From a virus, in the UHGV virus genome UHGV-0121047: a stretch of DNA of 18,551 nt; one strand, 5' to 3'. A model generated the notes under the pieces. The model saw nothing but the letters and a program-made list of their open reading frames with translations, was not told where the DNA came from and searched no databases. The position numbers and the translations under genes were made by a program. Numbering within the stretch: the first letter of the stretch is position 1; each line of letters opens with the position of its first letter. Of this stretch, positions 11,831 to 11,972 are shown piece by piece.

Positions 11831-11972
11831 TCATCTTTGCAGTAGCTTATGTGGCTAATTATGTCGTCCCATGAGTGCCGATGAATTTCCTTAGCATGAT
11901 TCTAGATTAGCTTAATAGGAAATGACTCTACAGACCCTTTAGCAAGGTCTGCGTAGGTTACTGCAAAGATGA
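11831..11972 (+). repeat. Perfect 14-bp inverted repeat TCATCTTTGCAGTA / TACTGCAAAGATGA enclosing about 115 nt with an internal hairpin (CAGACC...GGTCTG); candidate long-stem structured RNA
   Basis: Arms at 11831-11844 and 11959-11972 are exact reverse complements; no ORF; directly upstream of tRNA-Lys. Confidence 0.5.

Follow-up and report, generated by a model that had tools for sequence, protein, structure and literature searches.

A conserved, covarying RNA element in the tRNA array of Felix O1-like phages as a candidate Y-RNA-like partner of a Ro60-like protein

What does a long inverted repeat do when it lies just before a transfer RNA (tRNA) gene in a phage genome? The question is raised by virus genome UHGV-0121047, from which a stretch of 18,551 nucleotides (nt), called the window below, was analysed; the element at issue occupies positions 11829–11974 of the window on the + strand. 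Over its whole 18.5 kb the window is 94–96% identical to phages garuso, tootiki, Felix O1 and others, and on sequence grounds its origin is a Felix O1-like phage (Ounavirinae, Felixounavirus). It carries 23–25 tRNA genes as called by ARAGORN and Rfam, spread from 10867 to 15719 and all on the + strand, and the element sits inside a 433-nt gap that runs from a tRNA-Asp homologue (11463–11545) to tRNA-Lys(UUU) (11979–12054). This gap is found in ~250 GenBank phages, in which it is either unannotated or assigned to small ‘hypothetical proteins’ that are not conserved. The initial annotation of the repeat offered two readings, a second long-stem structured RNA (perhaps a second Y-RNA-like module) and a small inverted-repeat mobile element. 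We argue that the element very probably specifies a selected, structured + strand RNA, and that this RNA may serve as an accessory Y-RNA-like partner of a Ro60-like protein encoded upstream.

A conserved element with covarying + strand structure

The two 14-mers TCATCTTTGCAGTA (11831–11844) and TACTGCAAAGATGA (11959–11972) are exact reverse complements, as initially annotated. The perfect repeat is really 16 bp long (11829–11844 with 11959–11974), and the 14-bp arms enclose 114 nt and not the 115 nt first claimed. In 300 dinucleotide-preserving shuffles of the window, counting repeats within 300 nt, an inverted repeat of at least 14 bp arose in 3.3% and one of 16 bp in none, in agreement with the claim that chance is an unlikely source. 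Read as + strand RNA, the repeat is lengthened by G·U pairs into a closing helix, P1, of 23 pairs (11829–11851 with 11952–11974). In the predicted fold, P1 closes a multiloop holding three hairpins, H1, H2 and H3; the folding energy is −54.6 kcal/mol (z = −6.75 against shuffles) for the + strand and −45.2 kcal/mol (z = −4.75) for the − strand.

Homologues from GenBank and IMG/VR loci were gathered as 20 distinct sequences. A search with the element alone returned 62 records and one that included the flanks aligned ~240 records over the full region at similar length; because of this difference, the seeming presence or absence of the element is, on alignment, a matter of two sequence types, A and B. 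Type A comprises the window, bumzen, JLBYU32 and the genera Suspvirus and Mooglevirus, and type B comprises Felix O1, wV8, Mushroom and most Felixounavirus. Across ~250 relatives the element occurs once per genome, flanked each time by a permuted tRNA-like (YrlA-type) module on one side and tRNA-Lys on the other. The initial annotation had set presence/absence polymorphism, pointing to mobility, against covariation, pointing to structured RNA: covariation is what the comparison reveals, and an empty site is found in none of the relatives that share these flanks, all being of type A or type B.

Across the two types, H1 and the stems of H2 can hardly be aligned; shared by both are the register of P1, the apex of H2, and H3 including its loop. 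As an observation in its own right, the interior of the element (11853–11923 in the window, 455–530 in the type B locus L005) consists of two near-unalignable cassettes between flanks that are ~95% identical, which suggests either recombinational cassette exchange or rapid divergence. Type B nevertheless folds to the same architecture, with z = −6.26.

Pairing of P1 reaches 97.9% in the joint alignment, against 25–49% when the partners are slid. Its 5′ arm (11829–11851, 23 nt, of which the first 16 form the perfect repeat) shows compensatory changes relative to the 3′ arm (11952–11974): four pairs have changed on both sides (C-G/U-A twice, C-G/G-C and G-C/U-G), and there is a matched A-U insertion. 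The perfection of the stem is peculiar to the window genome, since 11833 and 11970, a mismatch-prone pair near the outer end of P1, form a C·U or U·U mismatch in 9 of 11 type A sequences. The 3′ arm is followed by UAAU and then by tRNA-Lys at 11979.

Within the multiloop, H1 (11853–11879) varies with lineage: CGTCCCATGAGTGCCGA is constant within type A, and type B has unrelated sequence in its place. H1 is weakly supported as a helix (73–84% paired; helices 2–3). H2 (11885–11923) has an apex, ATTCTAGATT (11899–11908), that is invariant in both types, an outer stem AUUUCCU/AGGAAAU, and a lower stem that reads AGC/GCU here versus GGGU/ACCC in type B; within type A, three independent compensatory pairs (C-G to U-A, U-A to C-G and A-U to G-C) fall in the outer stem. 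H3 (11931–11951) reads CAGACC-CUUUAGCAA-GGUCUG and abuts the 3′ arm of P1 with no spacer. This is the internal CAGACC...GGTCTG hairpin of the initial annotation, its arms lying at 11931–11936 and 11946–11951 around a 9-nt loop, CTTTAGCAA; the 20 distinct sequences all read UU(U/A)AGCAA in the loop, and within type A the stem shows one compensatory pair (G-C to A-U) and one G·U variant. RNAalifold, given no input structure, recovered P1 and H3 with 7 compensatory pairs.

One feature of H2 stands apart. Opening the weak apical pairs of AUUCUAGAUU (11899–11908) gives a 7-nt loop, UUCUAGA, with U at position 1 and A at position 5, which is T-loop-like; that the apex is a T-loop is speculative, as is the possibility that its self-complementary core, UCUAGA, supports a kissing dimer.

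The alignment also distinguishes the strands. G·U cells in P1 number 62 when the element is read as + and 1 when it is read as −, and they make up 13% of P1 cells; overall pairing of the helix falls to 84.9% on the − strand. Where P1 has been substituted on one side only (A or G opposite U), the changes are precisely the ones that wobble pairing can absorb. Because the G·U cells would be A·C in DNA or on the − strand, the RNA would be transcribed in the direction of the tRNAs. The claim of a long-stem structured RNA is upheld by this strand-specific pairing together with conservation in ~250 phages, compensatory changes in three helices and a stem recovered without prompting.

The enclosed segment is ORF-free as first described: no + strand open reading frame (ORF) of at least 40 amino acids covers it, and a short ATG frame in H1 shifts frame among relatives. 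A protein-coding reading is rejected, the hypothetical proteins assigned to this region in wV8, VSe11 and pEC-M719 not being conserved. None of the 4227 Rfam models matched within 11829–11974 at the gathering threshold or at E up to 10, and a scan of 11440–12060 at E ≤ 10, with a gathering-threshold scan of the window, returned only tRNAs and noise. Two RNA-level alternatives were also considered. Complements to the invariant H1 sequence and to the H2 apex, sought as antisense targets, were absent from the rest of the window, the search covering the window and not the rest of the phage genome or the host. A riboswitch-like alternative pairing of AAGAUGAU (11806) with the 5′ arm of P1 was rejected, as that segment is deleted in Moogle and Susp phages.

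A Ro60-like protein and an associated family of Y-RNA-like modules

The element lies 1.1 kb downstream of a 471-amino-acid ORF on the same strand (9286–10701), which carries Pfam domains DUF2828 and DUF7788 and stops 166 nt short of the first tRNA. Its product matches PHROG 850, ‘RNA-binding protein’, and relatives annotate it as ‘vWFA’ or ‘RNA-binding protein’; no match to Pfam TROVE and no sequence match in the PDB were found. An AlphaFold model built on a 30-sequence alignment has a mean predicted local distance difference test (pLDDT) score of 86.6 and a predicted template modelling (pTM) score of 0.87. When this model was compared with the PDB by Foldseek, the top 11 matches were all Ro60/Rsr proteins (Xenopus, human, Deinococcus and Thermus phage phiLo), spanning the full length with E values of 1e-8 to 3e-7 and template modelling (TM) scores of 0.5–0.65. 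The product is therefore predicted with confidence to have the Ro60 fold, a ring plus a von Willebrand factor A (vWA) domain. Homologues are widespread in large phages; those of mycobacteriophages (31–34% identity) carry the annotation ‘Ro-like RNA binding protein’. Through the protein we fetched 75 distant loci (38–48% identity; L089–L167), to which the module counts below refer, and in ~30 of the 75 the Ro60-like gene adjoins same-strand tRNA genes.

Four paralogous modules, interspersed with tRNAs on the + strand, separate the Ro60-like gene from the element: 11039–11111, 11206–11270, 11610–11683 and 11697–11827. Their common form in the window is CAGAAGACC-NNN-UUaCAGCAA … NNN-GGUCUGG, in which the NNN stem extension covaries among copies. 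The fourth, outside the element and ending 2–3 nt before it, has a closing stem AGACCGUU/AACGGUCU followed by the motif UUACAGCAA, and it holds a permuted tRNA-like domain made up, in order, of a V hairpin, a T arm (11752–11768), a closed acceptor-like hairpin (11769–11786) and a D arm (11789–11803). This is the helix layout described for the permuted tRNA-like RNA YrlA by Chen et al. 2014 (RNA 20:1715; PMC4201824).

The same arrangement recurs at the distant loci, which contain orphan T arms, outside called tRNAs, with the same permuted layout; these arms come after UU(U/A)CAGCAA or CCGCAA, itself right behind a short strand that has a downstream complement. A strict pattern (AG, a stem of 5–9 bp, 0–3 nt, [CA][AC]GCAA … complement and CU) matched 79 times on the gene strand of the 75 loci, compared with 6 times on the opposite strand and 4–18 times in five dinucleotide shuffles. 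At least one strict match is present in 44 of the 75 loci; 66 of the 79 matches lie within 1 kb of the gene and 2 lie inside it. In the window, the strict scan found only 11043, 11210, 11614 and 11701, that is, the four modules. Several positions that the pattern leaves free are conserved all the same (U at −2 in 70/76, C in 73/76, G after CU in 69/76 and A before AG in 50/76), giving the consensus (A)AG-stem-U(A/U)CAGCAA…stem-CUG. The modules fall into size classes of ~35, 60 and 100–125 nt, the last being tRNA-like. Examples are found at L103:3706–3940, L153:5385–5991, L164:3960–4225 and L166:4555–5105. Mycobacteriophages Kingsolomon and Tourach have three modules directly 3′ of the Ro-like gene, of which the second is tRNA-like; in Klebsiella phage KP13-26 there are five beside the gene, one of them a multi-hairpin of 125 nt; and Aeromonas phage LAh_9 has several. 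Rfam returned only tRNAs at the distant loci.

The helix plus CAGCAA may thus be the recognition site of the DUF2828 branch of Ro60-like proteins, a candidate that we infer from its association with the gene and that would parallel GGUCCGA or GNCGAAN0-1G of classical Y RNAs. A published phage precedent is the Ro60 protein of Thermus phage phiLo, which binds two Yrl RNAs, Yrl1 and Yrl2 (NAR 2025 gkaf470; PMC12135203). A promoter reading of the repeated CAGAAGACC…CAGCAA motif was rejected: only weak 9/12 matches were present at two copies, the stem partners covary, and the consensus in other phages contains no −35-like sequence.

H3 ties the element to this family. A near-copy, in shorter form, of the (A)AG-stem-U(A/U)CAGCAA…stem-CUG module, it is laid out as CAG-ACC, an UUUAGCAA loop and GGU-CUG; 7 of the 8 motif positions are retained, as is the 3′ CUG. 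Set side by side, ACAG-ACC-CUUUAGCAA-GGUCUG in H3 and ACAGAAGACC-GUUUACAGCAA…GGUCUG in the modules are clearly paralogous. The loop is kept in both types, H1 being replaced. Element and modules have in common the AGACC/GGUCU stem, the UU-N-AGCAA loop, the 3′ CUG (in H3), the strand and, by the argument below, the transcription unit; they differ in that P1, H1 and H2 have no counterpart in the modules, and H3 has no loop beyond the motif.

A proposed accessory partner RNA and its rivals

Strong sigma-70-like promoters are predicted at 10720 and 10811, with one more at 12229, after tRNA-Ile. No terminator-like site was found on the + strand between ~10720/10811 and 12229, nor any intrinsic terminator (a G+C-rich hairpin plus U run) on the + strand from 11800 to 12000, where P1 gives way to UAAU and then to the tRNA. 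Because the promoters lie upstream and no + strand terminator-like site intervenes, we infer that the element belongs to the tRNA transcription unit.

In the explanation we prefer, 11829–11974 would encode a structured noncoding RNA of ~146–150 nt, co-transcribed with the tRNA array from the promoters at ~10720 and ~10811. P1 (23–24 bp) would join both ends of this RNA and close the multiloop of H1 (variable), H2 (UUCUAGA apex) and H3. Release from the tRNA precursor would follow, the 3′ end most likely being set by an RNase P cut at the 5′ end of tRNA-Lys (11979). P1 would then take the role of the terminal stem of a Y RNA, bringing the ends together and protecting them from exonucleases, while H3, stacked on P1, would supply a minimal helix plus AGCAA as the putative binding site for the phage Ro60-like protein, and H1 and H2 would act as effector or specificity loops. 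To this statement as a whole, an accessory Y-RNA-like partner of the Ro60-like protein, we assign a probability of about 0.45–0.5.

Several likenesses to the Y RNAs YrlA and YrlB favour it. In both cases a Ro60-fold gene lies about 1 kb or less from the RNA, in the same orientation; tandem RNAs derive from one precursor, as would the element if processed; and the ends (for the element, the predicted ends) are paired in a long terminal stem around a large loop. In addition, the element adjoins a YrlA-type RNA, and the local motif proposed for protein binding is nearly copied within it. The differences are equally specific. P1 contains neither GGUCCGA (the metazoan motif) nor GNCGAAN0-1G (the bacterial motif) nor CGAA, and the local motif is present at only 7 of 8 positions and in an internal mini-hairpin; the multiloop sequence GCCGAUGA fits GNCGAAG in only one relative (L041). 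YrlA has a tRNA-like domain with T and D arms, which the element lacks, the domain sitting in the neighbour at 11697–11827. Finally, the protein here belongs to DUF2828/DUF7788 and not to Pfam TROVE, the element matches no Rfam model, and binding to the partner is putative.

Further points weigh against an accessory Y-RNA-like role. The whole element fails the strict module pattern, its terminal stem having neither AG...CUG ends nor U(A/U)CAGCAA. H3 has AG plus 3–4 bp where the 76 distinct canonical modules have AG plus 5–9 bp; it has U or A in place of the highly conserved motif C (73/76); and at 21 nt it is below the smallest module found (25 nt). The covariation in P1 comes mostly from the single split between types A and B, with independent events seen chiefly in H2 and H3. 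No homologue turned up when the 75 distant loci and the Klebsiella, Aeromonas, mycobacteriophage and T4 loci were searched with a covariance model of the element; because the model came up empty beside Ro60-like genes at so many loci, the element is by this measure clade-specific and hence no general partner of the Ro60-like protein. The earlier idea of a second Y-RNA-like module is plausible. The Ro60-fold gene upstream, the adjoining YrlA-type module and the near-motif in H3 speak for it; the element as a whole is off the canonical pattern, and the canonical extra modules are the three at 11039–11111, 11206–11270 and 11610–11683.

The strongest rival, which we hold to be less likely, is that the element serves the processing or stability of the polycistronic tRNA precursor. 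P1 would be an RNase III site, like the stems around rRNAs or the processing hairpins of T7 and T4, or else a barrier to 3′–5′ exonucleases; it would part the Y-like cluster from tRNA-Lys, and the RNA would have no function of its own. The usual minimum helix for E. coli RNase III is 20 bp. P1, at 23–24 bp including 4–5 G·U pairs, exceeds this two-turn criterion of ~20 bp, and it ends 4 nt ahead of tRNA-Lys. In RNase III stems of rRNA operons and the T7 early region, too, sequences flanking an RNA domain in a polycistronic stable-RNA precursor form a helix of more than 20 bp. A second conserved, covarying hairpin (27 bp, 13035–13125) with a related 3′ arm (…UAGGUU…AAAGAUUUAAU) stands directly before tRNA-Leu, which counts for a processing role and against a Y-RNA-like one, as does the restriction of the element to one clade. 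Three internal hairpins, however, are more than a plain processing stem requires; the apex of H2 and the loop of H3 stay unchanged between two otherwise unrelated interiors, and the stems of H2 and H3 covary. The enclosed domain has conserved loops, suggesting a function of its own, and cleavage of P1 is itself putative. The two readings are not exclusive, since stems of the rRNA type release functional RNA.

A more elaborate proposal, which we consider unlikely, would make the element a new type of Ro60 partner, in which the putative binding helix plus AGCAA has moved from the terminal stem to H3 on a scaffold helix, while the UUCUAGA loop (possibly a T-loop) and a swappable H1 cassette recruit or decoy a host factor, the A/B dimorphism reflecting an arms race. 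If this were true, the host factor could be PNPase, a tRNA-modifying enzyme or a tRNA-targeting defence nuclease.

It is improbable that the element is a degenerate duplicate of the YrlA-type module, with P1 as closing stem, H1 as variable arm, H2 as T arm, H3 as acceptor-like hairpin and the D arm lost. The order of helices would fit the YrlA order of V, T and acceptor stem, the H2 loop UUCUAGA resembles UUCRANY, a possible T arm has been reported in M. smegmatis YrlB, and H3 is paralogous to module stems. Against these resemblances, neither ARAGORN nor Rfam (E up to 10) finds a tRNA or tRNA-like match in 11829–11974, the H2 stem is a bulged one of 6–7 bp and not the 5-bp, G-C-closed stem of a T arm, and H3 is like the closing stem of the modules and not like their acceptor hairpin. 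In any case, the duplicate reading speaks to where the element came from, not to what it does, and it can stand alongside an accessory Y-RNA-like role.

Homology to the species 1 and species 2 RNAs of phage T4 (rnaC and rnaD; 139 and 119 nt) was tried and rejected, the covariance model giving no match in the T4 tRNA region. These, too, are small stable structured RNAs within a phage tRNA cluster, on the same strand and adjacent to tRNAs, presumably freed by tRNA-processing enzymes. Their folds are unlike that of the element, species 1 RNA has a canonical T arm and an acceptor-like end, and there is no Ro60-like gene at the T4 locus. The T4 RNAs are functional analogues and not homologues.

A small inverted-repeat element of the MITE (miniature inverted-repeat transposable element) kind, or its remnant, inserted between the tRNA-like module and tRNA-Lys, is very improbable, contrary to what was first entertained. 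The 16-bp perfect terminal inverted repeats would suit such an element, as would its gain within the Felix O1 / Moogle / Susp clade: in L089, a more distant relative (protein 48% identical) with the same layout of modules and tRNAs, a tRNA directly follows the tRNA-like module and the element is missing. Nothing, however, points to present mobility. The element occupies one place per genome, at the same site, in the 62 type A records and in ~250 records overall, with no empty site among relatives with the same flanks and so no polymorphism, and it has zero matches in 5,426 E. coli genomes and 72,556 plasmids. There is no target-site duplication, the flanks GGTCTGGTA|…|TAATGG showing no direct repeat, and an 8-nt repeat, AAGATGAT (11806 and 11966), is internal or non-adjacent to the arms and is deleted in Moogle and Susp phages. 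Changes in the arms, moreover, are compensatory through G·U pairs, a constraint at the RNA level and not that of a transposase site. Least credible of all is a palindrome acting in DNA (a protein-binding site, cruciform, or replication or packaging signal), which the long perfect inverted repeat would allow and to which the 13% of P1 cells that would be A·C mismatches in DNA, the tolerance of variation just where wobble rescues the + strand RNA, and the position within a dense same-strand tRNA transcription unit are all opposed.

The surrounding array and the meaning of the element

Further features of the array came to light. In the tRNA-Asp(GUC) homologue at 11463–11545 (+), the anticodon loop of relatives, CUGUCAC, is swapped for a 15-nt loop, ACGUAAAAGGAUAUU; ARAGORN does not call it and Rfam scores it at 45 bits, and it may be a pseudo-tRNA or a tRNA with an altered anticodon loop. 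Two more conserved hairpins, GGGCUAUUUAGCCC and CUCCCUUAAAGAGUUCUUACGAGUAUUCUUUAAAGGAG, follow it at 11556–11608 (+). A weak Rfam tRNA match (33.4 bits) with no ARAGORN call lies at 12462–12540 (+), near which relatives have an annotated tRNA-Arg. The hairpin at 13035–13125 (+; ~27 bp) is kept in 254 records with compensatory changes, different sequence following it in some relatives, and its 5′ arm overlaps a terminator-like hairpin (~13018–13043), AAAGACC-UUUUUA-GGUCUUUUU, in which the AGACC/GGUCU stem appears again. Outside the Felix O1 group, record GU169904.1 (Staphylococcus phage SA1, 147 kb) matches the 3′ part of the element and the start of tRNA-Lys at 87% over 58997–59048; Felix O1-like sequence has probably entered this record by contamination or as part of a chimera.

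Felix O1-like phages count among the best-known phages of Salmonella and E. coli and are used in typing and biocontrol. The literature searched contained no work on noncoding RNAs or transcriptomes of Felix O1 and no description of the long-stem element, the search not extending to the 22-phage supplement of Chen et al. 2014, in which the Felix O1-type YrlA may already be listed. The unannotated or misannotated 433-nt gap of these phages holds a covarying RNA element beside a YrlA-type RNA, which together with three simpler modules lies downstream of a Ro60-fold gene. The candidate recognition motif (A)AG-stem-U(A/U)CAGCAA…CUG may apply to the large DUF2828 branch of Ro60-like proteins, and to such a Ro60-like system the element would add an unusual, clade-specific component. 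Felix O1-like phages would thereby offer a genetically tractable E. coli and Salmonella system for the role of phage Ro60–Y RNA particles, one possible role being tRNA quality control, repair, or evasion of tRNA-targeting defences.

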